NCBI GenBank assembly: GCA_020160975.1
Contig: JAIUPJ010000001.1
Coordinates: 1 to 32,000, forward strand
Source: Candidatus Saccharimonadota bacterium
GTDB lineage: Bacteria; Patescibacteriota; Saccharimonadia; Saccharimonadales; Saccharimonadaceae
DNA length: 32,000 bases
Direction of reading: 5' to 3'
In this document: one piece after another, positions 3,298-26,732 of the stretch
Layout of the letters: each line of letters opens with the position of its first letter
How positions within the stretch are numbered: the stretch's first letter is position 1
Position numbers and translations under genes: made by a program
Notes under the pieces: model-generated
The model's database searches: none
What the model saw: the letters and a program-made list of their open reading frames with translations, nothing else
What the model was told of the DNA's origin: nothing

Positions 3298-3347
3298 TTT
3301 GAAGGGCGGAGCTTGACGCCCGTCCTTGTTATTGACATAGTGAAAGC

Positions 3348-3932
3348 ATGAACACTATCACGCGCCGCGGCTTTACCTTGATCGAACTACTAGTCGTTAT
3401 CACAGTGATCGTGATCCTCGTGATGATCACGGCGACGATCTACAGAAGTGTGCAAGTTCAAGCCAAAGATACACAGGTCACTGCCGTCGCAGACAAAGTG
3501 GGCGATGCCACTGTCCTTTATATCACTCAGCGGCGTAATCGCATAGCTCCGCCTGCCGGCTTAGGATCTACTGCAGCAATTGGAACAGGGCCTAACTGTA
3601 ACGGAGGCTCTGGTGGCTGGTTCGCGAGCGGCGCATACCCATGCAGTCTTGAGGATGTTCTGGTACTCAATAAATACTTGCCTTCAGGCGTATTGACATC
3701 GTTGTCACAGAGCACGATATTTCCGAACAACACGTATAATTCAAACATTATCGTCGATTCGTTTGATGATACAAATCATCGGTTCATGATATGGTGGCGC
3801 CTAGAGAGTCCGTCGGGTGCTGAAACAGCGAATTTCACTGCACAAATGCAAAAATGTGGGATTAATCCTGCGGGTAGTGTGTCGCAGCGTGACACTTTTG
3901 GCATGAGCAATGCGAAGTGCCTCAGTTACTGA
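3348..3932 (+). CDS. Type IV pilin / pseudopilin with prepilin N-terminal cleavage-methylation motif
   Basis: N-terminus MNTITRRG|FTLIELLVVITVIVILV has a short basic leader, G at -1, F at +1, E at +5 and a hydrophobic helix. The C-terminal domain has Cys residues (NCNGG, PCSLED, KCG, KCL). Confidence 0.85.
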   Translation: MNTITRRGFTLIELLVVITVIVILVMITATIYRSVQVQAKDTQVTAVADKVGDATVLYITQRRNRIAPPAGLGSTAAIGTGPNCNGGSGGWFASGAYPCSLEDVLVLNKYLPSGVLTSLSQSTIFPNNTYNSNIIVDSFDDTNHRFMIWWRLESPSGAETANFTAQMQKCGINPAGSVSQRDTFGMSNAKCLSY

Positions 3933-3942
3933 GAAGACTATC

Positions 3943-3951
3943 TGATATAAT
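3943..3951 (+). promoter_or_regulatory. Extended -10 element (TGaTATAAT) 8 nt upstream of the tig ATG
   Basis: TG at 3943-3944, TATAAT at 3946-3951, ATG at 3960, no SD in between. It is flanked by the inverted repeat CTATCT/AGATAG. Confidence 0.4.
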
Positions 3952-3959
3952 AGATAGTC

Positions 3960-5264
3960 ATGAAATCTACTGTTACAACTATCTCTGATACACGTGTGTC
4001 GGTCGTTATCTCTGTCGACAAAACAGAGCTCGCTGATGCCAAGCAAGTCGCGCTTAAAAAATTATCAAAAAACACCAAGGTTCCGGGGTTTCGCAAAGGT
4101 CATGTGCCGCTAGAAGTCGTTGCCAAGCATGTCGACCCGGCAGCGCTGGCCGAAGAAACCCTCAACAACGCTATCAGTAAGTCAGTCGCTGAGGCGTTCT
4201 TAGGTAATCAAATTCAGGTGTTGGAGCGACCAGAAGTCGAGGTAAAAAAATATGTACCGGGCCAAGAATTGGAGTTTACCGCCGAGGCGGACGTATTGCC
4301 ACAGGTAAAGCTAGGGGATTACAAAAAGCTTACAGCGAAAAAGATTGTAGCAACGGTCACGCCAGATGATGTCGATGATGTCGTGCAGCGGATCCGCAAG
4401 GGATTTGTGAAGAAAAAAGCAGTCAAGCGAGCGGCGCAAATGGGCGACGAAGTCACGATCGACTTTGTCGGCAAAAGGAACGGTCAAGCATTCGATGGCG
4501 GCACCGGTAGCGACTACCCGCTGGAACTTGGCTCAAACTCGTTTATCCCCGGTTTCGAAGAAGCGCTCGTAGGCGTTAAAACTGGGGACAAGAAAGATGT
4601 ACCGCTGACATTTCCCGCTGATTACCATGCTAAAGACCTCGCAGGTCAAGAGGTTGTGTTTGAGGTCACAGTAAAAAGAGTTAGCGAGAACGCATTACCC
4701 GAGCTCAATGACGAGTTGGCTGCAAAGGCTGGGCCATTTACGTCGCTTCAAGAGCTGACCGATGACATAAAGAAAGAGATCGCGGCGCAAAAAGAGCGTG
4801 AAGCTACCGATAAGCTAAAGGACGAGCTGGTGCAGCAATTGGTCGCGAAAAGTAAGGTTGCCGTTCCCGCTAGCCTGCGTGATGATCAAATTCGCTCGCT
4901 TGAGCAAGACTTGAAGCAGAATCTCATGTATCAGGGAATGTCGTTCGACCAGTATCTCGAAGGAAAGGGCTATGCTGACCGCGATGCGTGGGTCAAGGCA
5001 GAGGCTGAGGAAGCGGCGGATAACCGCATCAAGGCCGGGCTGGTACTCGCCGAGCTGAGCAAAGAGCTGAAAACTGAGGCCACCGCTGATGAGCTGGCCG
5101 AACACATTAACACATACAAGTCGCAATACGCCAATAATCCCGACATGGCTAAACGCTTCGACGAACCAGAGACTCAACGGGAAGTTGCTAATCGTCTGAT
5201 TACCGAAAAAACCGTCGACGAGCTTGTGAAACTTAACACTACGAAATCTGCGCAAAAATCATAA
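3960..5264 (+). CDS. tig: Trigger factor (ribosome-associated chaperone / PPIase)
   Basis: 434 aa with the N-terminal ribosome-binding signature VPGFRKGHVP, a central FKBP-like segment (VTIDFVGKRNGQAFDGG...FIPGFEEALVG) and a helical C-terminal arm. Confidence 0.93.
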   Translation: MKSTVTTISDTRVSVVISVDKTELADAKQVALKKLSKNTKVPGFRKGHVPLEVVAKHVDPAALAEETLNNAISKSVAEAFLGNQIQVLERPEVEVKKYVPGQELEFTAEADVLPQVKLGDYKKLTAKKIVATVTPDDVDDVVQRIRKGFVKKKAVKRAAQMGDEVTIDFVGKRNGQAFDGGTGSDYPLELGSNSFIPGFEEALVGVKTGDKKDVPLTFPADYHAKDLAGQEVVFEVTVKRVSENALPELNDELAAKAGPFTSLQELTDDIKKEIAAQKEREATDKLKDELVQQLVAKSKVAVPASLRDDQIRSLEQDLKQNLMYQGMSFDQYLEGKGYADRDAWVKAEAEEAADNRIKAGLVLAELSKELKTEATADELAEHINTYKSQYANNPDMAKRFDEPETQREVANRLITEKTVDELVKLNTTKSAQKS

Positions 5265-5277
5265 GCACACTTTCTAA

Positions 5278-5310
5278 GCAAAAAGCTCCCATTCCACAGG
5301 AGCTTTTTGC
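5278..5310. terminator. Bidirectional Rho-independent terminator between tig (+) and the 5334-5597 gene (-)
   Basis: GCAAAAAGCTCC (5278-5289) and GGAGCTTTTTGC (5299-5310) form a perfect 12-bp stem. A/T runs inside the arms give a U-tract in both orientations. Confidence 0.8.
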
Positions 5311-5333
5311 TACTACAGAATGGGAGCGTACCG

Positions 5334-5597
5334 TTAGGTGTGACTCCGTCCACGGTTAATCCAGTCGGTGATCTTGGATGCGATGTACACAGCTGCAGTG
5401 ACCCCTCCAGCCACCATCACTGTCAAGTCGATGGCAACGCTTACTGAGATCAGGCCATCTGGAATGTTGTTTCTCAACCCCCATTCGGGATTGAGAAGGT
5501 AGAGGGGCGCGAGAGCCATCAGCGCGAGAAGTGCGACGATGAGAGGTGACATGAGGATCAGCACAAGCATCTGACGGGAGCGCTTTGTGTCAAGCAT
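5334..5597 (-). CDS. Small (87 aa) membrane protein, unknown function
   Basis: Strong SD AGGAG lies 5 nt upstream of the ATG (minus strand ...TTAGGAGAATCCATG). It has a basic N-terminus, two to three hydrophobic helices and the C-terminal motif KITDWINRGR. Confidence 0.68.
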   Translation of the reverse strand: MLDTKRSRQMLVLILMSPLIVALLALMALAPLYLLNPEWGLRNNIPDGLISVSVAIDLTVMVAGGVTAAVYIASKITDWINRGRSHT

Positions 5598-5680
5598 GGA
5601 TTCTCCTAACTTGGAAGGAACAAGAGTTACATCATTATAATTACATAGATCCTATATAATGTCAATATGATGTACTTGAA

Positions 5681-5707
5681 CTAGCACTCTGCTTGCTAGA
5701 GTGCTAG
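5681..5707. promoter_or_regulatory. CIRCE-type inverted repeat (HrcA operator) upstream of clpP
   Basis: CTAGCACTC-TGCTTGCTA-GAGTGCTAG compared with the CIRCE consensus TTAGCACTC-N9-GAGTGCTAA. The 9-nt spacer is exact and 16 of 18 arm positions are identical; the two outer positions co-vary. It lies 25 nt upstream of the clpP ATG. Confidence 0.75.
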
Positions 5708-5731
5708 TTTTTATGGTAGACTAGAGACATT

Positions 5732-6328
5732 ATGATGAAACCTCACAATTATTTAGTTCCCAATGTAATTGTAAAAACCCGCGATGGCGAGCGCGGCTAT
5801 GATATCTACTCTCGTTTGCTCGAAGACCGTATCATTTTTCTCGGCGAAGAAGTGAATGAACACACCGCAAATGTGGTGGTAGCGCAGTTGTTGCACCTGG
5901 CAAACGAAGACCCAGATAAAGACATTCACCTCTACATCAACAGCCCAGGTGGCAGCGTCTACGACGGGCTGGCGATCTATGACACCATGAACTTTATCAA
6001 GCCAAATGTGGCTACCTACGGCATTGGCCTGCAGGCGAGTATGGGTGCATTCTTGCTGAGTAGCGGCACCAAGGGTAAGCGGCATCTATTGCCCAATGCT
6101 CGCGTGATGATCCACCAGCCAAGTAGCGGTACGCAGGGTAAAGTAACTGACCAAGAAATTTCACTTAAAGAAGCGATCGAACTAAAAGAAAAGCTGGCTA
6201 CTATGATGGCAAAAAACACCGGCCAGAAGCTCGCCAAGGTAAAAGCCGACATGGAGCGCGACTTTTGGATGAGCGCCAACCAGGCAAAAGACTACGGGAT
6301 TGTCGATCAGGTAATTGACAAACGATAA
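5732..6328 (+). CDS. clpP: ATP-dependent Clp protease proteolytic subunit
   Basis: 198 aa with [35 protein letters not shown] (catalytic Ser) and MIHQPSSG (catalytic His). Confidence 0.95.
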
Positions 6329-6343
6329 CACTTGAAGTATAAT
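6315..6343 (+). promoter_or_regulatory. Consensus sigma70-type promoter (inside the clpP 3' end) for the 6400 ORF
   Basis: TTGACA (6315-6320), 17-nt spacer, TATAAT (6338-6343). Confidence 0.6.
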
Positions 6344-6399
6344 ATATATTCGGGCAATGCGGCATGCATCGTCTCTGACTCCTCTGAAAGGTGACTTCT

Positions 6400-6729
6400 A
6401 TGTCCGTTTCGACGGCAATTGCACTGTTGTTCCTTGCTGGAACGTGGATGTGCGTTCGTAAAGGCTCGGATGCCTTGAGACACTCCAGCCAGATCAGAAA
6501 TCGCGGCCGTGCAGCCTTCCAAGGGAGGGCTGACGAGCGGAGCTTCGACGCCTCGCTGTGGTTTCTCGGCGCATCGCTTCTTGTCGTCGGGGCTGCAGTG
6601 GCCCTCAGCCGTAACAACGGTCACCCGCAAACGGTTGAATTACCGTTCTACCTCGGCGGTATCGGCTCGTTCTTCTCACTGCTTGGCGCCATCAACGCGC
6701 TGAATCGGCGAAGAAAGCCAGGCGACTAG
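6400..6729 (+). CDS. Small (109 aa) membrane protein, unknown function
   Basis: The ORF lies between a consensus promoter and a very strong terminator. SD AAAGGTG lies about 8 nt upstream of ATG 6400 (the track starts at GTG 6391). It has three hydrophobic segments and a basic C-terminus NRRRKPGD. GC is about 60%. Confidence 0.55.
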   Translation: MSVSTAIALLFLAGTWMCVRKGSDALRHSSQIRNRGRAAFQGRADERSFDASLWFLGASLLVVGAAVALSRNNGHPQTVELPFYLGGIGSFFSLLGAINALNRRRKPGD

Positions 6730-6746
6730 GAGACGTACCCTACGGG

Positions 6747-6789
6747 TGTTCTGGCCGCGCGAACCTGCGCGGCCAGAACATCTTTTTTT
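6747..6789 (+). terminator. Rho-independent terminator
   Basis: TGTTCTGGCCGCGC (6747-6760) and GCGCGGCCAGAACA (6767-6780) form a perfect 14-bp stem with a 6-nt loop, followed by TCTTTTTTT. Confidence 0.9.
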
Positions 6790-6790
6790 G

Positions 6791-6819
6791 TTGACAAGCA
6801 AAGGCAAAGTCTCTATACT
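6791..6819 (+). promoter_or_regulatory. Consensus sigma70-type promoter for rpoB-rpoC
   Basis: TTGACA (6791-6796), 17-nt spacer, TATACT (6814-6819), immediately after the preceding terminator. This leaves a leader of about 150 nt before rpoB. Confidence 0.65.
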
Positions 6820-14250: not shown

Positions 14251-14270
14251 TCCCAAGATAAAACTCTCAC

Positions 14271-14304
14271 AAAATACCGCTCGCATGAGCGGTATTTTGT
14301 TTGG
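14271..14304. terminator. Bidirectional Rho-independent terminator between rpoC (+) and the 14317-15360 gene (-)
   Basis: AAAATACCGCTC (14271-14282) and GAGCGGTATTTT (14287-14298) form a 12-bp stem with a 4-nt loop. An A-run precedes it and a T-run follows. Confidence 0.85.
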
Positions 14305-14316
14305 AGGACTGGATAT

Positions 14317-15360
14317 CTAGATGGCGACAGTAGATTCTATGCCGTTGTTGTCGCATTTTTCACCGAGATAGGCTTTTTTCAGATCGAGAGTATTGTAGCT
14401 GTTGCAAGGGAGTACTTGTTGTGTACCAGTGAAGTAGTGCCATGTTTTGTCAGGAGTTTGATAAAACAGCTGTGCCGCACCGCCCGCACCCGCTTCGCCA
14501 TGCTCGTCAACACCGCCTGAACCGAGCTGGAGGGTTGTATAACCTGTTGACTTGCTAGGTTTCGCTTGCGATGGCGTACCAATCAAGGCTAATTGTACTA
14601 CCTTGAACGAAGCTGGAAATAGTTCGTAAAATGGCTGCAAGCTCTTGGCATTTGCTGTATAGACAGTCATATCTTGGCAGCCAGCCTCTACAAGGTGCTT
14701 ACCAGCAGGATTGTTGTAGGTTTTTATGGTGGCCACCCGGCAGACAACGTCTTTTTCGGCGTAATGGGCGACGTACATACTGTCAGCGTCGGTGCCTGGC
14801 TGGACGATTGTTTCAGCAAATCCCATTTCTTTGAGCGATTTGGCGATAGTTGCAGTCTCGACGCTTGATTGGTTGTAGGCGACTTCCTTTTGTGCGGCGG
14901 CTGCGGGCATTACGGTAGTAAAGAAATCATAGCCGGCCACCTTGATCGCTTGCATCATTGCATCGTTTTTCACGGTGTAGCCGGGAGTGATTTTGCTTAG
15001 TACGCTTGTTGCCGTAAGTTTCGGTGCTGTCTTCGACTGAGTAGTCTGCGTTGTGGTGCTAGCTGGCACTGGCGCGGGTTTCTCAATATATGCTTTGTAC
15101 ACGGTGAGTGCTGCTACGCCGCCGAGGGCTGCCATCAGGAGCGCGAGGAGCAGTACAAGTAGCGGTTTGCTGCGGCGTTTGGTCTTTTCTTTGGCGAGTT
15201 CATGACTGGTGGCGGCAAAGTCGTTGTCTCGCTTTACGTCGTCAAGCGAGTGATCGTTAGTAACCGACACGGTACCCTCTCTCTGTCCCATCGTTGCTCC
15301 TGTATGTTCACTATTGTCAGGAAGATTTTCGATTGCGTCTAATTTTTCTTCATCACTCAT
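14317..15360 (-). CDS. Membrane-anchored extracytoplasmic protein, unknown function
   Basis: Start placed at ATG 15360 (MSDEEKLD), with AAGGA 7 nt upstream and TATAAT further upstream; the track start at 15462 is unlikely. It has an acidic cytoplasmic N-terminus, one TM helix (KPLLVLLLALLMAALGGVAALTVY), a Thr/Ser/Pro linker and a Cys-containing outer domain. Confidence 0.7.
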   Translation of the reverse strand: MSDEEKLDAIENLPDNSEHTGATMGQREGTVSVTNDHSLDDVKRDNDFAATSHELAKEKTKRRSKPLLVLLLALLMAALGGVAALTVYKAYIEKPAPVPASTTTQTTQSKTAPKLTATSVLSKITPGYTVKNDAMMQAIKVAGYDFFTTVMPAAAAQKEVAYNQSSVETATIAKSLKEMGFAETIVQPGTDADSMYVAHYAEKDVVCRVATIKTYNNPAGKHLVEAGCQDMTVYTANAKSLQPFYELFPASFKVVQLALIGTPSQAKPSKSTGYTTLQLGSGGVDEHGEAGAGGAAQLFYQTPDKTWHYFTGTQQVLPCNSYNTLDLKKAYLGEKCDNNGIESTVAI

Positions 15361-15567
15361 ATCAATGTCCTTGATTATAATTATGGTTGTATTGTACGCC
15401 ACGGGGTGGACAAATGATAGATTTGTTGCTACACTGACAAATGAGTTTCTTTCTTGTGGCAATAGAGGCGAGTGTGAAGCAACTGTCGCCGCAGGAGACG
15501 TGAGTATGTGCTTGCTGCACGGTGCTCACAAAATAGCGAAGGCCTTTAGCAAGCCGAGTATGCGAAA

Positions 15568-16188: not shown

Positions 16189-16668
16189 ATGCCTAGAAAA
16201 GTTACCAAGAAACTACAGCGAACTATCAAGCCTGACCGCAAGTACCAGAGTGTACTCGTGCAGCGTTTGATCAACAAGAGTATGCTCGACGGCAAAAAAC
16301 TTGCCAGTGAGCGCATGGTCTACGCCGCGCTTGAGCAGGCAGCCAAGACCCTGAAGAGCGAAGAGCCACTTGAAGTGTTTGAGAAAGCCCTCAAGAACGT
16401 TTCGCCAAACTTCGAGGTCAAAAGTCGCCGTGTTGGCGGTGCGAACTACCAGATTCCGTTCCCTGTTCAGGGTCACCGTCAGCTGCACTACGCATTTAGC
16501 TGGCTCGTGCAATCAGCCCGTAGTCGTAGTGGTATCCCGTACGAAAAGCGCCTGGCGCTTGAAATCGTCGATGCCTACAACGAAACCGGTGCTGCCTTCA
16601 AGAAAAAGGAAGATACGCACAAGATGGCCGAAGCGAACCGCGCATTTGCGCACTTTGCTCGCGGATAA
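16189..16668 (+). CDS. rpsG: 30S ribosomal protein S7
   Basis: 159 aa with DRKYQSVLVQRLINKSMLDGKK...VKSRRVGGANYQIP...AFKKKEDTHKMAEANRAFAHF. SD GGAG lies 7 nt upstream. Confidence 0.97.
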   Translation: MPRKVTKKLQRTIKPDRKYQSVLVQRLINKSMLDGKKLASERMVYAALEQAAKTLKSEEPLEVFEKALKNVSPNFEVKSRRVGGANYQIPFPVQGHRQLHYAFSWLVQSARSRSGIPYEKRLALEIVDAYNETGAAFKKKEDTHKMAEANRAFAHFARG

Positions 16669-16672
16669 AATC

Positions 16673-16981
16673 ATGTCTGTTGAGCGACAACAGGGCCGAC
16701 CAACCGCAGAATACTTTACGGAGTCGGCCCTTCGCTTTTTAAGGGATGAATACTACTGGGTTAATCCTTTTAAAGGTGTGTATGAATACGATCACTCAAA
16801 ACGTGCTCTTGATATTGGCGTGATATGGCGTGAGTACCAGGCTGATGGACGAGTGCCAAGCGATAGCTTCGACCTCGAGTTTTTTTGCTCTTCGTCAACT
16901 AGCGCTCTATCATCCAAGCGCAAAGCCTGCGATATCAATGTGTCAGTAGAGCATTGCAATCCTTTGCCCTCTGCCTTATAA
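16673..16981 (+). CDS. Hypothetical 102-aa protein, first gene of the rpsG-fusA insert
   Basis: The ATG is 4 nt after the rpsG stop. It is the in-frame tail of track ORF 16370-16981; the upstream part of that ORF is an out-of-frame overlap with rpsG. The sequence is aromatic-rich and looks globular (FLRDEYYWVNPFKGVYEYDH...). No recognisable family. Confidence 0.5.
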   Translation: MSVERQQGRPTAEYFTESALRFLRDEYYWVNPFKGVYEYDHSKRALDIGVIWREYQADGRVPSDSFDLEFFCSSSTSALSSKRKACDINVSVEHCNPLPSAL

Positions 16982-16992
16982 CTATAAGCAGG

Positions 16993-18105
16993 ATGGGCGA
17001 GCAGCGAGTATCCAGAGTGCATTATGGCCAATCGATTCCAACAAATGGGTATGATGCGCTTGAAGCTGCACGTGCACTGCCACACGACCGCTGCGACAAA
17101 TCATTTACGTTTGACTACAATGCCGCCTACGGGCGGTATTTTCGTATCCAAAAGGTTTTGGTTGGCTCGAGCGGCTCGAGCGAACTTATCGACATCGCCA
17201 ATGAGCTTGCGGACACAAATCATCCTGACTATCTCAATGTGGCCGGTTGGTCGTACCTCGAGGCCGCGCTCAGCGGCGCAGAAGACTGTGCTATCGAGAG
17301 AATTGAATGTGTAGAGAAGGCCGAGTCCGCCTGGAAGCAAACACTTTCGATACTCGAAACAAACCCCATTTTTGCACCAGAGACCGGCAATGCCGACTAT
17401 GCCGACACACACCGTATAGCACTTAGCCTTGCTTATACTCCACTCGTCCGAGCCTTAATTGCAGGTAATATCACAGAGGCGGTACAAGAGCGCGTCTTTG
17501 CTGACACGCTTGCGATTGCCGAGCGATGCGTCATCGATCAGCATTTAGCGATGCAGCTGGAAGATGATGTAAAGCGGAGCGACGCACTGAGTGACTACAC
17601 GGGATTTCTTCATGAATGCAATTGTCTGCTGGCACTTCTTTACCGCAATGATCCGCAGCGAATTCCTATGCCCTCATCTGCGCGAGCTGGAAGTGGGCTT
17701 GAGTATGCTTCGGAGACCCATGACATTATGGTGATCCATCAAAAATGGGGGACGATCCACCGAACAACGCCGATTGAGGTCAAGTCACATTGTGGTACGC
17801 GCGAATACGATCGCTACAAGGCGCTTGTCGTGCGAGGCAAGGCGCATCTCTTGCCGCAAAACTTAGGCCATCATCACCCGTCACTGCTGGTTGAGGCATT
17901 TAGTGATACCTATAACTCTCATCAACCTGCGAGTCGCTCGCTCGATGCTTGTGATGCCGCAGCACGAGTGGTAGAACGACTACTCGTCGATTATCAAAAG
18001 AGCCAGCGTATCGATGAAGGTAGGGAGCGCAACACTCGCACGCATTTCCATGCCTCCCCCCATCTTGGCCGCTATGCCACGCGCGCAGACCTCCTCAGCG
18101 CCTGA
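16993..18105 (+). CDS. Hypothetical protein with a helical N-terminal region and a C-terminal PD-(D/E)XK-like nuclease signature
   Basis: About 370 aa. ATG 16993 lies 11 nt after the preceding stop; ATG 16954, which overlaps the previous ORF, is an alternative. In track numbering the motif is GFLHE221 ... THD257IMVIH ... x17 ... PIE275VK277S, followed by YDRYKALVVRGK. This is the order and spacing of restriction-endonuclease-fold motifs. Confidence 0.7.
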   Translation: MGEQRVSRVHYGQSIPTNGYDALEAARALPHDRCDKSFTFDYNAAYGRYFRIQKVLVGSSGSSELIDIANELADTNHPDYLNVAGWSYLEAALSGAEDCAIERIECVEKAESAWKQTLSILETNPIFAPETGNADYADTHRIALSLAYTPLVRALIAGNITEAVQERVFADTLAIAERCVIDQHLAMQLEDDVKRSDALSDYTGFLHECNCLLALLYRNDPQRIPMPSSARAGSGLEYASETHDIMVIHQKWGTIHRTTPIEVKSHCGTREYDRYKALVVRGKAHLLPQNLGHHHPSLLVEAFSDTYNSHQPASRSLDACDAAARVVERLLVDYQKSQRIDEGRERNTRTHFHASPHLGRYATRADLLSA

Positions 18106-18188
18106 TAGCATTGCAATCTTTGGCGTAGCGGCGTACACTAATCTCTATTATTACTGGGTGGTGGTAATCAAAAGCGGCGGGAGAAGAA

Positions 18189-20288
18189 ATGTCTGAAAGG
18201 GCGGTTATTCAACAAAACAAAGATGCAAAAGCGTTTGAAGCCTTTGCGCTCCATACTGACAAACATTACGATCCGGGAATCGCTGAGTTCCATCGTGCCG
18301 CCGTACGGGCCGAACAACTACTCCGAGATTCTGAAATAACTGTTGATGCCGAGGAGCTTCTCGACGAACTCAACCTTAAGTGGCCATTTCACGGACAAGA
18401 TATCACCGTGGCAGGAAGATTATATGTCTGCGGTGATATTGAACATATTGAGGAATATATCCTTGAAGCTCTTGGGACGCGCAAGCTCGATCACTGGGGT
18501 GAATACTTCGAAGTAGAGGATACGACACTTGTGTCGATGGGCGTAATCGATGCAAGCGCAACTGGTGATGATAGTAGTGAAGCATCGATAGTGTATGCGT
18601 ATGGACTTGACGAAGAGGATGCGGAACCAACCTTTATCGCTCGACTGGGCGACATTCATAGGGCCGAATACCCATATTCAACCTATGAAGGGTGTGTTGC
18701 CCACCTCAAATATGAGTACCCAGCAATCTATACAGACATAGTGCGTCTCATTACTCCAAATGTGTATGATATGAACAAACTCAATAATACCCTTCATTAT
18801 TTGGTGCAAACATATCCAGAAATTTGCGAGGACGATCGACTCGGTACTTGGGTATCAGTATTCATTACAAGACGCGCTAATTTCGATAAGCACACCACCT
18901 ACACATTTATGATGGAAGGAGAGATGATGCTTCCTGACGATGATGGTGACGAAACAGTATATTCAATTGTAGAACCGTATACTTTTGACGCAAAGATTAT
19001 GAGCATAGGATTCGGCACTATTGAGCGCGACGGCGAGACTGATGAAGCAGTCGCTAGCTATTTGTTGGCGCTTCCGAGCGGCATTAAGTCTGGAAGTGAG
19101 CACCTCGACTCCCAAGCAATCCTCCCTGTTAATTCAGTAATCACTGTTGAGCCGCGTCGGCCGGTCTTGTCTGTTCGCGAGCAGCTCGAGCGTGCGCAAC
19201 TTGATAAGGTTCGTCCTGCGCTCGCTCGTGCCGGGCTAATGAAGCTCGCTGATGTCGAAATGTCCGCACCCTATCAAGATGAAGAGGACAAGAAAGAAGT
19301 ACCTATTACAAAGCGTGAGCGATGGACAATGCTCCAGGCTCAGCTCGAAGATATGATTTCGAAAGTGAAGAAAGCACGTTCTCGTGATTATTCGGGCATC
19401 GAGGCTGCACACATCACGGCTCAGCATTTGGTAAATGAGTTTTATGCCTCATTAGGAGACCTTTCTGACACGCTACATCGAACGCTCATTGAAGTGGGAG
19501 GACGTGGAGTGTCAGTTCCACTCGTAAAGCTCGACCGCACGAGGACCGAAAGTGAAGATATTATCACCGTACGAGCAGACCTAGATGGCCTGAGAAACCC
19601 GGGGATTAGCCACGAAGTGAGGGGGACGTTGATTACGCTTGCAGCTTCGGTTCAAGAGCTCGATGATGATACCTACAAGCCAGCCGTATTCATGAGTCTT
19701 GATATGGGTAACTTGACGCGCAATATTGATATCGTCGCATTTGAAGAGCTTCCACTGGCAAAAATGCTCACAAGCCAGGCTGCACTCGTCAATCTTGACG
19801 GAACAGCAACGGTAGAAGTGAGCGGGCTGAAGTACGCAAACAGACGCGAAGAAATATTGCGTGAATTTCATCAAATGTGTCGAGCTAAGCAAGCAACTCG
19901 CGAGTTCGTCGCAATTCGCGCGCTAGATAAGGCAATCCACCGCGAGCTTGATTCGATGTCGATTCCGCTCGAAAATATTGCATTACTTGGTAATCTCCAC
20001 GATGTGATGCGATCTACCGAGCACGTAGATGATGTTGCACATGCGTTAAATGCCATTATGGGAGGTGGACGTATGCTTATCGTCAACGGTAATTTCATCG
20101 ATAAAGACGGTCAAGTGCTTGAAGCAAAAGACTATATGACATTTTGCGTTGATGTCGTGCACACTCTTCCGTTCAGCGATGAGCGCATACCGTCACTTGT
20201 TGTGATGCCAACCGGCATGCCGACAGGCACCAGTGAGGCACCAATGCACTATGTGCCTCTGCATAGCATTACAGCGTTGCAGTACTAG
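18189..20288 (+). CDS. Hypothetical 699-aa acidic protein, third gene of the rpsG-fusA insert
   Basis: A long uninterrupted ORF with SD GGGAG 7 nt upstream. I found no Walker A, HxH, DEAD or other catalytic motif by eye. There is a central charged helical segment (about aa 325-400) and the two flanking halves show by-eye similarity to each other. Confidence 0.8.
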   Translation: MSERAVIQQNKDAKAFEAFALHTDKHYDPGIAEFHRAAVRAEQLLRDSEITVDAEELLDELNLKWPFHGQDITVAGRLYVCGDIEHIEEYILEALGTRKLDHWGEYFEVEDTTLVSMGVIDASATGDDSSEASIVYAYGLDEEDAEPTFIARLGDIHRAEYPYSTYEGCVAHLKYEYPAIYTDIVRLITPNVYDMNKLNNTLHYLVQTYPEICEDDRLGTWVSVFITRRANFDKHTTYTFMMEGEMMLPDDDGDETVYSIVEPYTFDAKIMSIGFGTIERDGETDEAVASYLLALPSGIKSGSEHLDSQAILPVNSVITVEPRRPVLSVREQLERAQLDKVRPALARAGLMKLADVEMSAPYQDEEDKKEVPITKRERWTMLQAQLEDMISKVKKARSRDYSGIEAAHITAQHLVNEFYASLGDLSDTLHRTLIEVGGRGVSVPLVKLDRTRTESEDIITVRADLDGLRNPGISHEVRGTLITLAASVQELDDDTYKPAVFMSLDMGNLTRNIDIVAFEELPLAKMLTSQAALVNLDGTATVEVSGLKYANRREEILREFHQMCRAKQATREFVAIRALDKAIHRELDSMSIPLENIALLGNLHDVMRSTEHVDDVAHALNAIMGGGRMLIVNGNFIDKDGQVLEAKDYMTFCVDVVHTLPFSDERIPSLVVMPTGMPTGTSEAPMHYVPLHSITALQY

Positions 20289-20389: not shown

Positions 20390-22483
20390 ATGGCAACTCC
20401 AAAGAACGTCCCCCTAAAGGACTTCCGAAACATCGGTATTATCGCGCACATTGACGCTGGTAAGACCACGACTACCGAAGGTATTTTGTACCGAACCGGT
20501 ATTAATCACAAAATTGGTGAAGTCCGTGGCGACGGCGACGGCGCGACCACTGACTGGATGGCTCAGGAAAAAGAGCGCGGTATCACCATTACTTCTGCTG
20601 CGGTCACATGCTTTTGGAAGGGCCACAAAATTAACATTATCGACACGCCGGGTCACATCGACTTTACGGCCGAGGTGGAGCGCTCACTGCGCGTCCTCGA
20701 CGGCGCAGTGACGGTGTTTGACGGCAAGATGGGCGTTGAAGCGCAGTCTGAGACAGTTTGGCGTCAGGCAAACAAATACGGCGTACCTCGTGTCTGTTTC
20801 ATCAACAAAATCAACCAAACTGGCGGTGACTTCTACAAGTCACTCCAGAGCATCCACACGCGTCTTTCTAAGAACGCGCTGCCGGTACATCTCCCAATTG
20901 GCTTTGAAAAAGACATCAATGGCGTGGTTGACTTGATCGAAATGAAGGCCTATACCTATAACGACTTCACCGACAAAGCACTTGTCGAAGGCGACATTCC
21001 CGCCGACATGGTAGAAAAAGCGACTAACGCCCGAGCACTGCTGGTGGAAGCAGCAGTTGAAGCCGAAGACGAGCTTATGGAGAAGTTCTTTGAAGGTGGT
21101 GTCGAGGCGATCAGTAAAGAAGAGCTCAAGCGAGCTCTCCGCAAGCGTGTCCTCGCGGGCGACTTCTTCCTAGTGACGGGCGGCGATGGCCGTGGTGTGA
21201 TTGTTGAGAAGCTGCTCGACATCATGACTGACTACCTGCCAAGTCCACTCGATGTTGACGCCATCTGGGGCAAAAACCCGAAGAATGGCGACGAAGTATC
21301 ACGCAAGCCAGAAGACAAAGAGCCGATGGCAGCGCTAGCCTTCAAGCTCGCAACTGACCCATTTGTCGGTAAGTTGATTTTTGTACGCGTGTACTCTGGC
21401 GTGTTGACAGCAGGAAGCTACGTACTCAACACGACCACTGGCGAAAAGGAACGTGTTGGTCGTATCGTGCGTATGCACGCCGATAAGCGCGAAGAAATCG
21501 ACAAGGTTGGTGCCGGTGACATCGCGGCGGTGGTGGGCCTCAAGGGGACTTTCACTGGCCATACGCTTTGTGACCCTGCACATCCAATTGCCCTCGAAGC
21601 AATCACTTTCCCAGATCCACCGGTATCGATCGCGGTTGAGCCAAAGACAAAAGCCGACCAAGAGAAAATGGGTATTGCGCTACAGCGCCTGGCCGAGGAA
21701 GACCCAACCTTCCGCATCCACACCGACGAAGAGACGGGACAAACCATCATGTCTGGAATGGGCGAGCTTCACCTCGAAATTCTCGTCGACCGTATGAAGC
21801 GCGAGTTCAACGTCGAGGCTAATGTCGGAGAGCCACAAGTCGCCTTCCGTGAAACTATCAAAGCGACTGCCGAAGTGCAAGGAAAGCATGCCAAGCAGTC
21901 TGGTGGACGCGGTCAATACGGTGACGTTTGGGTGCGATTTGAACCAAACGAGCCAGGCAAGGGCTTCGAGTTTATTGATGCTATCAAGGGCGGTGTGGTG
22001 CCGCAAGAGTACCGCCCAGCTGTTCAAAAAGGTATTCGTGAAACGCTCGACGGTGGTGTTATCGCCGGCTACCCAGTGGTTGATGTCAAGGCAACACTCT
22101 ACGACGGTAGCTATCACGATGTTGACTCGTCTGAACTCGCCTTTAACCTGGCTGGTAGTTTGGCTGCACGCGAGGGTGTGAAGAAAGCCAGCCCAATCCT
22201 GCTCGAGCCAGTCATGCATGTCGAAGTAACGACACCAGAAGAATTCATGGGTGACATCATCGGAGACCTCAACAGCCGCCGTGGCCGTATTGAGTCGATG
22301 GAAGACCTCATGGGTGGCGCAAAGCTTATCAAGGCAATTGTGCCGCTGGCCAGCATGTTTGGCTACACCGGCGATATTCGTAGTATGTCCCAGGGTCGCG
22401 CAGCCAGCACCATGGAGCTCGCGCACTATGAGGAAGTACCACCAAACGTCGCGCAGGAGATCATCGAAAAGCGCAGCAAATAG
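20390..22483 (+). CDS. fusA: Elongation factor G
   Basis: 697 aa with [12 protein letters not shown] (G1), DTPGHIDF (G3) and NKINQ (G4, a variant of NKxD), plus domain IV and V segments. Confidence 0.97.
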
Positions 22484-22537: not shown

Positions 22538-23122
22538 ATGAAGCGAAGCTATAGCAGTCTCAGTCTCGTCTGGGCGCTGGTCGGAACAGGTGTAATCGGT
22601 CTATCTCTCAGCATGGTGCTGACGAGCGATCAGAGGTGGTTGGAGTGGCATATTAGCCGATTGGGCGAAGGAAGCGGTCTGGCTGCAGCGATATTTAATT
22701 TCTCGCTCTCACTTGCTGGACTTATCCTTGTGCTCATCACGATGCGTATGACCGATGAAATTCGTCACCGCAACCCAAACAGTTCGGTGACAGCGCTACG
22801 CGCCCTACTACTACTCACAGCGGTGTGCTGGATAGGCGTCGCCTGCTTTCCGTTCGATCGATTTAAGCTCATTCACTGGATCTTCGGCTATACGCAGTTT
22901 TTCGTGATTGGGTTCCTGATGTTACGGCTCAAGCACCTCACTGCGGCATTTAGCGCTCGTACTCATGCGATCGGTCTGATGAGTGCACTGGTGGTGGCGA
23001 TTCTGATGGGGCTCCACCACACTATCCATCTTCTGCCGCTCCTCACCGTCGAGCTGGTCGGCGAGCTGGCGGTCTTTATCTGGCTTCTCTCGATGGCTTA
23101 TGATCAAAAACCCTCTCGTTAA
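22538..23122 (+). CDS. Polytopic membrane protein (tentatively DUF998-like)
   Basis: 194 aa with about 6 hydrophobic helices. The segment ISRLGEGSGLAAAIFNFSLSLAGL resembles the DUF998 signature as I remember it; this is unverified. Confidence 0.7.
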   Translation: MKRSYSSLSLVWALVGTGVIGLSLSMVLTSDQRWLEWHISRLGEGSGLAAAIFNFSLSLAGLILVLITMRMTDEIRHRNPNSSVTALRALLLLTAVCWIGVACFPFDRFKLIHWIFGYTQFFVIGFLMLRLKHLTAAFSARTHAIGLMSALVVAILMGLHHTIHLLPLLTVELVGELAVFIWLLSMAYDQKPSR

Positions 23123-23184
23123 GCTTTGTTTAAGCTCATTTTTTTAAGATGAGTACGACAAGGATATAAAGGAAAAGATACCTC

Positions 23185-23502
23185 ATGGCAAAAGAAATTA
23201 TCACAAAAGAAGTCACCGAAGAAGTTGCAACGCCGCCTATAGCTACAACTGAGAGTGTCATCCATACGGATACCACTTCCATCAACCGCTCACTGATTAT
23301 TGCAGTAGGGGCATCGGTAGTGCTATTCATTATTGGGATGGTCCTCGGCTATCTTCTCGGCCGCGTTACCTCGGGAGGTAATCATGGCAGGATGATGGAC
23401 GGCCATTACCGCACATTCGATCGCGATACAGGAGGACGCCTTCGCCAAAGCCAATCAACAGGCACCCAAAGTAGCAGTAACACTTCAACACAGGCACAAT
23501 AA
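23185..23502 (+). CDS. Small single-pass membrane protein with a Ser/Thr/Gln-rich tail
   Basis: 105 aa with the TM helix LIIAVGASVVLFIIGMVLGYLLG. Its stop TAA directly abuts the next ATG (TAAATG at 23500-23505), suggesting translational coupling. Confidence 0.5.
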   Translation: MAKEIITKEVTEEVATPPIATTESVIHTDTTSINRSLIIAVGASVVLFIIGMVLGYLLGRVTSGGNHGRMMDGHYRTFDRDTGGRLRQSQSTGTQSSSNTSTQAQ

Positions 23503-24024
23503 ATGGACGCCAAGAACAAAATCTTTACCGTCATTGGGTCAATAGCGCTGATTGCTGCGACGGCGACTGGTGGATATCTGCTCCTTACCGCGCCTACTGG
23601 CAATACTGTTGCGACCTCATCGAATACACAAGCCGTCACTCGGTCAACTGCAGAATCGGCCACCAACACTCCGTCCACAAGTACCAGTGAATCAACAGGT
23701 GCAGCTGACACAACGACAACGAGCTCGTACAAAGATGGTACCTACACTGCTACTGCCAGCTATAGCGTACCGCATGGAGAGCAAAACTCGATCGCCGCCG
23801 AAGTAACAGTTGCTGACGGTAAGATTGTCTCAGTTAAAACAACCGACAACTATAGCGACCACGAGTCGGCTATGTATATCAGCGGTTTTGAGTCGAGTGT
23901 GAACAGTAGCGCAAGAGATCAGTTGCTTGCTACCTACAGTCCAAGCCGTATCGGCGGCGCGAGTCTCACGACTGCTGCTTTTGGCGATGCATTGGATATG
24001 ATTCGCTCCCAAGCGATGGCGTAG
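23503..24024 (+). CDS. Membrane-anchored extracytoplasmic FMN-binding-domain protein (probable ApbE substrate)
   Basis: It has an N-terminal anchor IFTVIGSIALIAATATGGYLLL and a Thr/Ser linker. This is followed by DGTYTATASY...AAEVTVADGKIVSVKTTDNYSDHES and the C-terminal RIGGASLTTAAFGDAL. The last segment resembles the FMN_bind flavinylation motif (D-x-x-[ST]-G-A-[ST]), with GGAS in place of SGAT. Confidence 0.72.
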   Translation: MDAKNKIFTVIGSIALIAATATGGYLLLTAPTGNTVATSSNTQAVTRSTAESATNTPSTSTSESTGAADTTTTSSYKDGTYTATASYSVPHGEQNSIAAEVTVADGKIVSVKTTDNYSDHESAMYISGFESSVNSSARDQLLATYSPSRIGGASLTTAAFGDALDMIRSQAMA

Positions 24025-24032
24025 GCGGTCGG

Positions 24033-24923
24033 ATGATAGTGCTGTACGAATTTGATGCAATCGGTACTCACTGGTGGATTGAACTACTAGACGGTAGCCA
24101 CTTTGATGAAGCACTCGTTCATCGCATCAAAAAGACAGTGCAGCAGTTTGATCTTCGCTATTCTCGCTTCCTCGATGAGTCATTGGTGAGCGAGCTCTAT
24201 CGCACTGGCAGCCTCAGTCACCCGCCAGCCGAGATGATACGCATGCTCGAATTTGCGAGGGAAATGCAGGAGGTTTCGGAAGGCGCTTTCGATATTTCAG
24301 TAGGCAACACACTTCATCGGATGGGCTATGGCAAACGGTCAGTTGCAGGCTCGGTCGCCACACTATCTTTTTGGGATCACCTCACCCTTACCCCCATGCA
24401 AATCCTTCTGTTTCCGCCCATTGCTAAAGGCAACGTACCGCTAGCAGAAGGTGAAAAGGGAAATAATGCGAGAGGGATTATGTTGGATTTTGGTGGGTTT
24501 GGCAAGGGGTGGCTGATCGACCAGTTAGTACGTGATTTAAAATTGGCTGGCAAACATGAATTTATCGTCAACGGCGGAGGAGATCTCTATGTTCGTGCCA
24601 AAAAACCGATACGTATCGCTCTCGAGGACCCGATGAATGCAACATCATCGCTCGGCTATGTCGACATCATTCACGGAGCACTGGCAGGGAGCAACACGAT
24701 CAAGCGCGTATGGCAGGATGGCAGCGATACAAAGCATCATATCATTGATCCGTTGACAGATGACTCGAGCGCGACTGGCGTAATCGCCAGTTTTGTCATG
24801 GCCGATTCGGCATTGATAGCCGATGCCATGGCGACGATTCTGATCTTGCGGCCAGCGCTAGAAGAAAAATTGAAACACGCCTACAATCTGCAGACAGTTT
24901 TGATAAGAAAAGAAGCCCCGTAA
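24033..24923 (+). CDS. apbE: FAD:protein FMN transferase (ApbE family)
   Basis: 296 aa with ApbE-like blocks: GAFDISVG, DFGGFGKGWLIDQ, VNGGGDLY, KHHIIDPLT and ADAMATIL. Confidence 0.87.
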   Translation: MIVLYEFDAIGTHWWIELLDGSHFDEALVHRIKKTVQQFDLRYSRFLDESLVSELYRTGSLSHPPAEMIRMLEFAREMQEVSEGAFDISVGNTLHRMGYGKRSVAGSVATLSFWDHLTLTPMQILLFPPIAKGNVPLAEGEKGNNARGIMLDFGGFGKGWLIDQLVRDLKLAGKHEFIVNGGGDLYVRAKKPIRIALEDPMNATSSLGYVDIIHGALAGSNTIKRVWQDGSDTKHHIIDPLTDDSSATGVIASFVMADSALIADAMATILILRPALEEKLKHAYNLQTVLIRKEAP

Positions 24924-24953
24924 CGTGGGCTAGGCGACCGCAAAAACGGCAGG

Positions 24954-25235
24954 CTACACTTCAACATCACTTGCAGACGGCTCTCCTCTCCTGATCCAGT
25001 CATCAACGCGATTGATCACCGTGATAGCTACAAAGTATAGGCAAGTGATCAGGAGCACGAACACGCAGAAGAGACCGCAGAATGCAACGAATTTCACAGC
25101 CGAGAGCAGGATAGTTGCGTACGACAGCCCTCCCTTGGCATGGAGAGCCCAGACGGTAAGGCCGATAAGCGGTGTGTAGCGGGCGACACGGACAGCGTTC
25201 TTGCGTGCTCGCTGGGTGCGGAGGTACTTGGACAT
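24954..25235 (-). CDS. Small (93 aa) membrane protein, unknown function
   Basis: AGGAA lies 4-5 nt upstream of the ATG. It has a basic N-terminus, hydrophobic helices and the C-terminal RVDDWIRRGE (compare the 5334-5597 product). It is co-oriented with and downstream of the NOX-like gene. Confidence 0.58.
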   Translation of the reverse strand: MSKYLRTQRARKNAVRVARYTPLIGLTVWALHAKGGLSYATILLSAVKFVAFCGLFCVFVLLITCLYFVAITVINRVDDWIRRGEPSASDVEV

Positions 25236-25343
25236 AGCTTTCCTATCTGTAGAGTGCAGTCCTTGCCCGAATGATACAATGCTTTTTTGCTATCTGTAAA
25301 TAGCAGGTATCTTTGCTAAACTCAAGAACCTAGAACGTAACTC

Positions 25344-26645
25344 TCACCAACCGAATTTCTCGCTATATATATGTGAAGCGGGGACGCCAAGCGAGATAAT
25401 GGCAGACCTCGCTGTGCTCATCATTGCGTCTGGGCCACAGAGATAGTAAGTATAGCGAGTTGGGCTGTCGAGGTGTTTTCTCAGCAATTCGGCGGTGATA
25501 TGTCCGTTTGCTTCCCCTGGCGGTAGCTCATGGCTACCTTGGCTGAAGACCGTTACCGCATGACTACCAAGTCGTTCTTTGAGCGGTGCATACAGAACGG
25601 CCAGTTCACGATTACGATGTGCGGTAAATAGCCATTGTTCACGGTGCGAGGACTCACTCATGATCCGGTCAACAAAGGGTGTAACGCCGATACCTCCGGC
25701 GATATAGACAACGGGTGTAGAAGGTGCTCGATCAATCGAATCAGTAAATTGTCCATACGGCCCACCTAGCAGAACAAAATCGCCCTCAGCTAGTGCCTCA
25801 ATCTCCTTGCTGTACATACCTGCACGACGCACGCCTAGCGTAATATCACCTGACTTTTTGTTATACTGCACAACGCTGAATGGGTGATCCTCGCTGATGA
25901 ATCCAAGTTTGACGTAGACATACTGGCCGCGACGAGGAACAAGACGATGCTGGCCGGCTGGGCTCAGCTTGAGTAGAGTATCAAGTCCTGTCAACGTCGT
26001 ACGATGCACTACTTTATAGGGTAGCTTATCGAGGTTAAGCCAGCTGCGGAGGCGCAGAATCGAGATAAGGATGTAGATTATCATCAGCGTGGACAGGTAG
26101 GCTTTGATCCAAAGATGTGTCTGCACTTGAGCGCCAAGATCTGGAACATGTAGTAGTGCGAACGGAATCGCCAGATATGCCAGCCAGTGCAGGTACCGCC
26201 AGGTCCGCCAGCTTAGCTTGCCACGCACCACGGCAGAGCTTACCCAAAGGACAATAAGCGCCCAGAGCGCAACCTGCCCAAGCATAATATGTCGCTCAGT
26301 GAGCGTCGTGAACTGCGGGATAAACGAATACAGCCAGCTTTCGCCATAGCCGATGGTCACGAGCACAGGGTGGACAAAGATCAGCAGAGTGCCATAGATG
26401 CCGAGGTATTTGTGGATAGCGAGACTAGCGGCGAGGTCTGTGGTCAGAAATCGGCTGATGGATTTTGCGCCGAGGATATACATCCAGAGTAGGAGCGTTA
26501 TGCCGCTGTAGCCACAGATGGCCGAGCTCCAGAGTAGAAGCGCACTTGCAGACCACATCACTGGTAGCGGAACAATGAACAGTGGCGACACTATCGTCAC
26601 CGTGATTGCTGAAATAAGAAGGATGCGCTTAGGTAAATCACTCAT
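25344..26645 (-). CDS. NOX/ferric-reductase-family membrane flavocytochrome (6-TM bis-haem domain plus FAD/NAD(P)H dehydrogenase domain)
   Basis: TM helices HKYLGIYGTLLIFVH (H-x13-H) and HWLAYLAIPFALLH (H-x12-H). Also HPFSV (FAD), GGIGVTPF (NAD(P)H) and YLCGPDAMM (FNR-type CGP). Start placed at ATG 26645 (track: GTG 26651), with TATAGT 9 nt upstream. Confidence 0.87.
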   Translation of the reverse strand: MSDLPKRILLISAITVTIVSPLFIVPLPVMWSASALLLWSSAICGYSGITLLLWMYILGAKSISRFLTTDLAASLAIHKYLGIYGTLLIFVHPVLVTIGYGESWLYSFIPQFTTLTERHIMLGQVALWALIVLWVSSAVVRGKLSWRTWRYLHWLAYLAIPFALLHVPDLGAQVQTHLWIKAYLSTLMIIYILISILRLRSWLNLDKLPYKVVHRTTLTGLDTLLKLSPAGQHRLVPRRGQYVYVKLGFISEDHPFSVVQYNKKSGDITLGVRRAGMYSKEIEALAEGDFVLLGGPYGQFTDSIDRAPSTPVVYIAGGIGVTPFVDRIMSESSHREQWLFTAHRNRELAVLYAPLKERLGSHAVTVFSQGSHELPPGEANGHITAELLRKHLDSPTRYTYYLCGPDAMMSTARSAIISLGVPASHIYSEKFGW

Positions 26646-26732
26646 GCTCACTGCACTATACAGGGCCCATGCTTAAACGAATATTAAAACTTTGGCAGGC
26701 GCTCCTATGCTCAGTACGACACATGAAAAGTG

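Follow-up and report, generated by a model that had tools for sequence, protein, structure and literature searches.

The window examined here, a stretch of 32,000 nucleotides, comes from a core part of the chromosome of a member of the Saccharibacteria (TM7, Patescibacteria). It carries a tRNA-Leu gene, the tRNA being the sole match of an Rfam scan, followed in order by genes for a SpoU methylase, HisRS, a pilin-like protein, trigger factor and ClpP, and by rpoB and rpoC. After rpoC come a minus-strand gene for a membrane protein, rpsL, rpsG, three unannotated open reading frames (ORFs), fusA, four further genes, tufA and the gene of a CHASE histidine kinase. The three ORFs between rpsG and fusA are termed orfA, orfB and orfC, and orfB is our principal subject. 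The C-terminal half of its product very probably forms a nuclease of the restriction-enzyme type, and the protein as a whole is probably a PD-(D/E)xK nuclease, active and dependent on metal ions, in which a helical domain would serve to bind a substrate or partner; this activity is predicted from its conservation and modelled structure.

The proposal goes back to four residues that were read as the catalytic core E...D-x(10-30)-(D/E)xK. Translation of 16954-18105 on the plus strand returned all of the quoted peptides (GFLHE at 217-221, THDIMVIH at 255-262, PIEVKS at 273-278 and YDRYKALVVRGK at 285-296), and the coordinates and residue identities assigned to E221, D257, E275 and K277 were correct. 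What requires amendment is the numbering, which began at TTG 16954, the earliest start codon available. Translation more likely begins at ATG 16993, because database homologues begin MGEQR and TTG 16954 falls within a hexamer resembling a -35 element. Numbering from this ATG, equal to the earlier numbering minus 13, is used throughout, and the four residues become E208, D244, E262 and K264. The pattern itself is present as described, but in a single sequence it amounts to no more than chance: it occurs in 62% of 2000 shuffles of the orfB protein and also in the products of rpoC, fusA and orfC. Its value therefore had to come from homologues and structure, and conservation of the residues does exceed chance.

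A word-indexed search found 14 relatives of orfB with 38-98% identity, and an exhaustive phmmer search of 1.84 billion cluster representatives gave 118 matches at E<=1e-3, with 42 at E<=1e-30. Proteins 98% identical to orfB, one of them encoded on a 973-kilobase contig, are annotated as hypothetical, under 'Candidatus Saccharibacteria bacterium' and 'Patescibacteria group bacterium', and every named source of a homologue belongs to the Saccharibacteria or Patescibacteria; the family is found only in assemblies so labelled or on contigs with Saccharibacteria-type synteny. The test of conservation proposed with the original prediction gave the same answer at both depths, as E208, D244, E262 and K264 are invariant in an alignment of 15 sequences of close homologues and again in one of 57 sequences that reaches ~20% identity and has a mean column identity of 26%. 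In the larger alignment only 8 of the 370 positions are invariant (E90, E208, R231, G235, D244, E262, K264 and Y275), and T242, H243 and G204 are at least 90% conserved. An alignment of the domain only (49 sequences, residues 190-345) displays the same invariance, with the signature G-x3-E ... PSxAR(A/G)DxG ... QTHD ... P-h-E-h-K ... RY. If four of the 60 Asp, Glu and Lys residues were picked blindly, the probability that all would be among the five invariant ones is ~1e-5. When the 49-sequence domain profile was used for a word-indexed search, not even the family's own members were recovered; this probably reflects a limitation of the tool and is uninformative.

Modelling with AlphaFold2 places these residues where the superfamily would have them. 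In the full model (predicted local distance difference test score, pLDDT, 76; predicted template modelling score, pTM, 0.82), the C-terminal part runs helix 192-217, strands 223-227, 243-251 and 254-264, helix 270-274, strand 278-281 and then C-terminal helices. This is the order alpha-beta-beta-beta-alpha-beta on which the original prediction had staked its case, with the four residues on the canonical elements. E208 lies inside the predicted helix 192-217, in agreement with the helical context first suggested for it, and the ~190 residues ahead of the nuclease domain, which had been guessed to be helical, are predicted to be entirely so. One detail is reversed: the catalytic Asp had been put at the end of a strand, and the predicted structure has D244 at a strand start, the canonical position. 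Because strands 243-251 and 254-264 form a tight hairpin, D244 would, from the strand register, face residues 261-263. A model of the domain alone (residues 188-345; pLDDT 84.8), with helices (H) and strands (E) in the order H2-31, E36-40, E58-64, E67-77, H82-87 and E91-94, reproduces the topology of the full model.

Structural searches were less decisive. Foldseek with the full model returned only weak matches of helical-repeat, 14-3-3 and alpha-SNAP type (E>0.19); the helical-repeat matches swamped the search, and the C-terminal domain was therefore remodelled alone and compared with the PDB and BFVD. No significant match to the domain model was found in either (best E 0.17 in the PDB and 0.06 in BFVD; template modelling score, TM, <=0.40). 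The weak PDB list consists mostly of proteins with a restriction-endonuclease fold, including many entries for Prp8, D212, R2 retrotransposon proteins, tRNA-splicing endonucleases, TnsA, BstEII, BsmI, MspI and BsaWI, and that from BFVD contains MmcB-like proteins, a Holliday junction resolvase, DUF2726, UL24, DUF1064 and a 'restriction endonuclease'. On the strength of the models, a PD-(D/E)xK fold for the C-terminal domain is likely but not proven.

The PD-(D/E)xK superfamily is that of the restriction-endonuclease-like fold (Pfam clan CL0236). As predicted, orfB shares with it the alpha-beta-beta-beta-alpha-beta core, the Glu on helix 1, the Asp at the start of strand 2 and the (E)xK on strand 3, together with the D-to-E spacing, which in orfB is 18 residues. 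It differs in having extra family-specific residues that are invariant or, for H243, nearly so (R231, G235, H243, Y275 and E90), and a helical N-terminal domain of ~190 residues. No family match for orfB was found in Pfam, NCBIfam, PHROG or PADLOC, no relevant PDB match was obtained by sequence with the single protein, the full-length profile or the domain profile, and Pfam and PADLOC scans of all 57 members gave nothing relevant. We therefore place orfB in a family that has not been described before, inside a superfamily that is well known. Searches of the literature that combined Saccharibacteria with PDDEXK, 'str operon' or 'restriction endonuclease-like' gave no result.

Hints at Shedu, Cas4 and restriction enzymes had accompanied the motif, and these are not supported, as no defence, Cas4 or restriction-enzyme model matches orfB. 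With Shedu (SduA, DUF4263) it would share a single polypeptide with a non-catalytic N-terminal region, a C-terminal PD-(D/E)xK nuclease and no methyltransferase partner. However, there is no DUF4263 or SduA match in PADLOC (orfB, E<=1) or Pfam, and orfB has a fixed chromosomal position and vertical descent, unlike the mobile defence islands of Shedu, with no match in the phage and plasmid collections searched. Among the 57 members, PADLOC gave matches to just two candidate-system models, both unrelated, and in either case by a single member (E~0.04). Cas4, RecB and AddB nucleases carry a QxxxY motif, of which the conserved Tyr of orfB is reminiscent, the D...ExK core being followed in each case by a conserved Tyr on the next helix. 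The orfB motif, however, is R-D-x-x-R-Y, with no Gln four residues ahead of the Tyr, and the protein lacks the four-cysteine iron-sulfur cluster of Cas4 and AddB, C209 being the sole near-invariant Cys in the 15-sequence alignment. No Pfam Cas4 or PDDEXK_1 match was found among the 57 members, and no CRISPR array or helicase adjoins orfB.

Core topology and the order of catalytic residues are also shared, as far as the models go, with D212 of a fusellovirus, TnsA of Tn7, archaeal and phage Holliday junction resolvases and the Type II enzymes BsaWI, BstEII and MspI, but at E 0.06-5, TM 0.16-0.40 and 9-20% identity homology cannot be demonstrated for any of them. The annotated or scanned neighbours of orfB include no methyltransferase, transposase or junction-processing partner. 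As regards a Type II restriction-modification system, no methyltransferase domain was found near orfB in the window, in L001, L002, L004-L006, L008-L011 and L013 (the labels denote loci carrying relatives of these genes) or among the gap genes of L019, L020 and L022-L025; L003, L017, L018 and L021 were mapped with marker genes only. The sole methylase in the window is the SpoU rRNA methylase, 15 kilobases (kb) from orfB. A freestanding homing endonuclease was rejected, the active site being intact in 57/57 sequences, the divergence correlating with that of the flanks and conserved flanking repeats being absent.

The history of the gene was followed through synteny at 17 independent loci from genomes and metagenomes, at all of which RpoC is 76-88% identical to that of the window. 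In 13 of these orfB immediately follows rpsG and precedes fusA (the window, L002, L005, L006, L008, L010, L017, L019, L020, L022, L023, L025 and probably L024), the orfB identity falling as low as 32%, and in the other four (L001, L003, L004 and L021) it lies between tgt and an HxlR/two-component cluster. Pairwise orfB identity tracks that of rpoC (Spearman 0.73) and fusA (0.68), the guanine plus cytosine (G+C) content of the orfB region resembles that of its flanks, and no match was found in IMG/VR viral contigs, phage genomes or plasmids. A mobile insert is thus ruled out by G+C content, synteny, identity correlation and the phage, plasmid and viral searches, and the description of orfB as the middle gene of an insert gives way to that of an old, vertically inherited resident of the site with variable neighbours. 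The place of orfB between rpsG and fusA would predate the divergence of these genomes, with a move to the tgt/HxlR site in one subclade. Compared with a 98%-identical relative, its ratio of nonsynonymous to synonymous substitution rates (dN/dS) is 0.12, ~15-fold the value for fusA (0.008), and its identity is ~40% where that of RpoC is ~84%, a pace similar to that of the neighbouring histidine kinase. Judged from these sequence comparisons, orfB is a real gene under purifying selection.

An 18-nucleotide direct repeat brackets orfB at 16950-16967 and 18107-18124, 12 nucleotides of it exact (AGCATTGCAATC), with the -35-like hexamer TTGCAA in each copy. It was considered as an insertion scar and rejected, since a repeat of this kind is expected by chance and only the 98%-identical relatives retain it. 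TACACT stands 17 nucleotides after the TTGCAA of the second copy, which could therefore be a promoter for orfC.

A candidate promoter of orfB itself, of the sigma-70 type, overlaps the 3' end of orfA, and its form recurs in 15 of the 17 loci: TTGACA, TTTACA or TTGCAA, a spacer of 17 nucleotides, TATAAC or TATAAA, and an ATG 6-10 nucleotides on (window 16954-16995, L006 and L010 5957-6003, L005, L017, L019, L020, L022-L025, L001, L002, L004 and L018). A generic promoter/terminator scan gave results at background level, and such a simple consensus scan missed this element since TTGCAA/TATAAC, a 10/12 match, lacks the required T at the last -10 position. Given the conservation of the predicted promoter, orfB is probably transcribed independently of the ribosomal genes that surround it. 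The promoter-proximal ATG is the orfB start in five loci, the window among them, which implies, if the promoter is as predicted, an mRNA that begins inside the str locus with no leader or almost none; in the window the predicted transcription start is 0-3 nucleotides ahead of ATG 16993. In the other ten it lies upstream of the annotated orfB start, and within one subclade (L019, L020, L023 and L025) it clearly opens a conserved mini-ORF of 12-14 codons. The peptides MGSNTNIAKVIGD, MGANTNIGKVVGD, MGAHNTNIRKVLGD and MGTNTNMKVLAY, each closed by a stop codon, end 0-6 nucleotides before the orfB start, beside a GGGGA run resembling a Shine-Dalgarno sequence. The mini-ORF may be a leader peptide or an element of translational coupling.

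The neighbours of orfB are a good deal more changeable. Only the first ~70 residues of orfA are conserved, and only in close relatives: the protein is 97% identical over residues 1-72 only in L013 and 37% identical over 62 residues in L010, and there is no counterpart at other loci and no family match in Pfam, NCBIfam, PHROGs or PADLOC. The orfC protein is a fusion of two unannotated families, an N half (~1-345) and a C half (~380-699), each with a gene of its own in other genomes. The undivided form is found in L010 and L025; the N half has its own gene, of ~320-360 residues, in L019, L020 and L024 and, upstream of orfB, in L003; and the C half has one in L019 and L023. As separate genes beside orfB homologues (L019, L020, L023, L024 and L003) the halves measure 320-365 residues. 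Against its counterpart in L010 orfC is 20% identical over the full length (E 1e-18), where orfB is 57% identical. Its dN/dS is 0.12, no family or structure match was found for it, and an alignment of the N half has no invariant residues of catalytic appearance.

No orfC-type gene stands beside orfB in L017, L005, L004 or L008, and unrelated genes take its place at some loci, for instance L002 with a pair of trypsin-like peptidase genes and L008 with a Band_7 gene. Because orfC-type genes evolve fast and are missing at several loci, orfB is to be seen as the constant element and the partners as frequent but optional. A three-gene system is rejected, since orfA counterparts are confined to close relatives and several loci have orfB alone, with no orfC-type gene. 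The peptidases of L002 (a locus of the Saccharimonadaceae; 2051-6810) are two paralogous proteins of ~750-820 residues with trypsin-like peptidase domains, encoded between rpsG and the orfB homologue.

Table 1. Coordinates of orfB, its predicted parts and associated features (positions are those of the window unless a locus is named)
Feature	Position	Strand	Evidence or remarks
rpsG (ribosomal protein S7)	16189..16668	+	conserved upstream flank; tblastn synteny map; Pfam Ribosomal_S7 on L002 orthologue
orfA	16673..16981	+	small ORF of 102 residues; 3' end holds the candidate orfB promoter
Candidate orfB promoter	16954..16982	+	TTGCAA 16954-16959, 17-nucleotide spacer, TATAAC 16977-16982, 10 nucleotides to ATG 16993
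orfB	16993..18105	+	protein of 370 residues carrying the motif; ORF and start-codon analysis
N-terminal all-helical domain, residues ~18-186	17044..17550	+	predicted; AlphaFold2 helices 18-27, 44-51, 58-73, 78-94, 100-123, 138-157, 162-186
E90	17260-17262	+	invariant in 57 sequences; within N-terminal helical domain
C-terminal predicted PD-(D/E)xK nuclease domain, residues ~190-345	17560..18027	+	AlphaFold2 domain model
E208 (E221 earlier)	17614..17616	+	inside core helix alpha-1; invariant; predicted accessory acidic active-site residue
R231...G235	17683..17697	+	invariant pair in the PSxAR(A/G)xxG loop joining strands 1 and 2; may contact phosphate or substrate
D244 (D257 earlier)	17722..17724	+	motif (Q)THD, N-terminal end of strand beta-2; invariant; predicted metal ligand
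E262-V-K264 (E275-x-K277 earlier)	17776..17784 (E262, 17776-17778; K264, 17782-17784)	+	C-terminal end of beta-3; both invariant; predicted metal ligand and catalytic lysine
Y275	17815..17817	+	invariant Tyr, 11 residues past K264, helix-2/strand-4 junction; presumed functional role
orfC	18189..20288	+	fast-evolving partner protein of 699 residues
fusA (elongation factor G)	20390..22483	+	conserved downstream flank; synteny map; Pfam EF-G domains on orthologues
orfC-half genes	L019 8154-9116 and 10191-11288; L020 5281-6246; L023 8122-9210; L024 1755-2777; L003 2789-3874		
Mini-ORF	L019 6950-6991; L025 6971-7012; L023 6925-6969; L020 4087-4125		degenerate in L024 and L001

Elsewhere in the window, the minus-strand gene between rpoC and rpsL (14317-15462) encodes 381 residues with a hydrophobic segment and only faint matches to the envelope-integrity protein Cei, and has a 28%-identical counterpart at the same position in L010. 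A perfect 14-base-pair inverted repeat with a 4-nucleotide loop (14269-14300) directly follows the rpoC stop codon, in the space where rpoC and this gene converge, and is likely a bidirectional terminator. The interval between fusA and tufA (22538-26651) holds a DUF998-like gene, a gene for a 173-residue protein of no assigned family, ApbE and a minus-strand gene for a ferric-reductase-like flavoprotein. As non-ribosomal genes thus part fusA from tufA as well, the str operon of this lineage is interrupted at several points.

How the orfB protein may work can be sketched by analogy with the superfamily. D244 and E262 would be the ligands of one or two divalent metals (Mg2+ or Mn2+), K264 would orient the water molecule for attack, and the acidic cluster would be completed by E208 of the core helix. 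The enzyme would thereby hydrolyse a phosphodiester bond in DNA or RNA, with the invariant R231 and Y275 probably holding the substrate backbone and the helical domain, with its invariant E90, probably selecting the substrate or binding a partner. A conserved promoter belonging to orfB would drive its transcription, the mRNA having a very short leader or none, and the gene would often, but not always, be followed by fast-evolving partners of the orfC families. Several considerations weigh against so complete a picture. The 57 members all escape the sequence profiles of known PD-(D/E)xK families, the AlphaFold2 models were built on the shallow alignment of 15 sequences, and the spatial clustering of the four residues is suggested by strand register only and not by coordinates. 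Catalysis, metal dependence, the substrate and the role of the partner are what we infer, and our proposals for substrate and biological role are guesses.

These reservations invite the question of whether the protein is a nuclease at all. That the motif arose by chance in a hypothetical ORF and means nothing for function is scarcely credible: the frequency of the regular expression among shuffles and in unrelated proteins of the window would allow it, but the 118 homologous cluster representatives, the invariance of these exact residues, the dN/dS and a confident predicted fold all speak to the contrary, and conservation across the 57 sequences together with the dN/dS refutes it. Rather less improbable, but still unlikely, is a PD-(D/E)xK-like fold in a protein with a binding or regulatory function, its acidic pocket serving another ligand, or else a mistaken fold prediction in which the E/D/E/K residues serve other chemistry. 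Inactive or repurposed PD-(D/E)xK domains exist, the endonuclease-like domain of Prp8 being an example, and it is Prp8 that heads the PDB Foldseek list of the domain model; a significant match to any characterised nuclease, in structure or in sequence, is moreover lacking. Repurposed domains, however, usually lose their catalytic residues, and here all four are invariant where the average column is ~26% identical, accompanied by H243, R231 and Y275, in a predicted topology that, like the placement of the residues on it, matches the catalytic core exactly. An active nuclease therefore remains the reading that we favour.

As to what such a nuclease is for, our best guess is divided about evenly between a chromosomally fixed nuclease of self/non-self discrimination, following the logic of Type IV restriction or of Shedu, and a housekeeping nuclease of DNA repair, recombination or RNA processing. 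It is possible, though we hold it tentatively, that orfB is an anti-phage effector, Shedu-like or Type IV-restriction-like, with an N-terminal sensor, that orfC-type proteins are its sensor or specificity partners and that the gap between rpsG and fusA is a hot spot for the accumulation of such genes. The predicted architecture of a variable or helical N-terminal domain followed by a PD-(D/E)xK domain would suit such a role, as would partners that change very fast (20% versus 57% identity over the same divergence) and are split, fused, lost or replaced between genomes, an orfB-fusA gap whose content ranges from 0.2 to 3.3 kb, and the evolution of orfB itself, which is much faster than that of its core-gene flanks. 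Yet no PADLOC model matches orfB, orfC or any of the 57 members, no match came from the phage, plasmid and viral-contig collections searched, no other recognisable defence genes are nearby and orfB stands alone in L017, L005 and L004; its conserved position and a divergence roughly clock-like with that of rpoC would also be unusual for a defence gene. An enzyme of translation or genome maintenance, whether a processing RNase for rRNA, tRNA or mRNA or a nuclease of junction resolution or repair that makes up for an enzyme these reduced genomes lack, can be entertained with similar caution. Its vertical inheritance, retention in genomes of ~0.6-1 Mb (megabases) and the fact that the catalytic residues are never lost in 57 sequences would be natural for such an enzyme; both conserved sites adjoin translation genes (rpsL-rpsG-fusA and the gene for the tRNA-modifying enzyme Tgt), and tRNA-splicing endonucleases and Holliday junction resolvases are among the weak structural matches. 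This sits less well with the promoter predicted for orfB, which makes co-regulation with the str genes unnecessary, with the position of tgt on the opposite strand, with a rate that is high for a core processing enzyme (the ~40% identity and 15-fold dN/dS given above) and with an apparent confinement to the part of the Saccharibacteria that the RpoC identities delimit. A bolder proposal, and one to which we attach little probability, is that orfB and its orfC-type partners constitute a Saccharibacteria-specific, chromosomally fixed nuclease module in the str (rpsL-rpsG-fusA) locus, with its own leaderless promoter and, in some genomes, behind a leader ORF of 12-14 codons. Such a module might serve as an immunity system of a new, vertically inherited kind, or else as a nuclease coupled to translation that acts on RNA associated with the ribosome, in neither case with a described counterpart.

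Nothing is overturned by these results, and new PD-(D/E)xK families turn up regularly. The gain is one of annotation: a probable enzymatic fold and active site can now be assigned to a lineage-specific family (118 cluster representatives in 1.84 billion) that is unannotated in the profile libraries searched, and four residues are identified for point mutation. Saccharibacteria are ultra-small epibionts whose genomes consist largely of hypothetical genes, and in this lineage the universally conserved str locus has long been host to a predicted nuclease gene with a promoter of its own and partners that evolve as if in an arms race.

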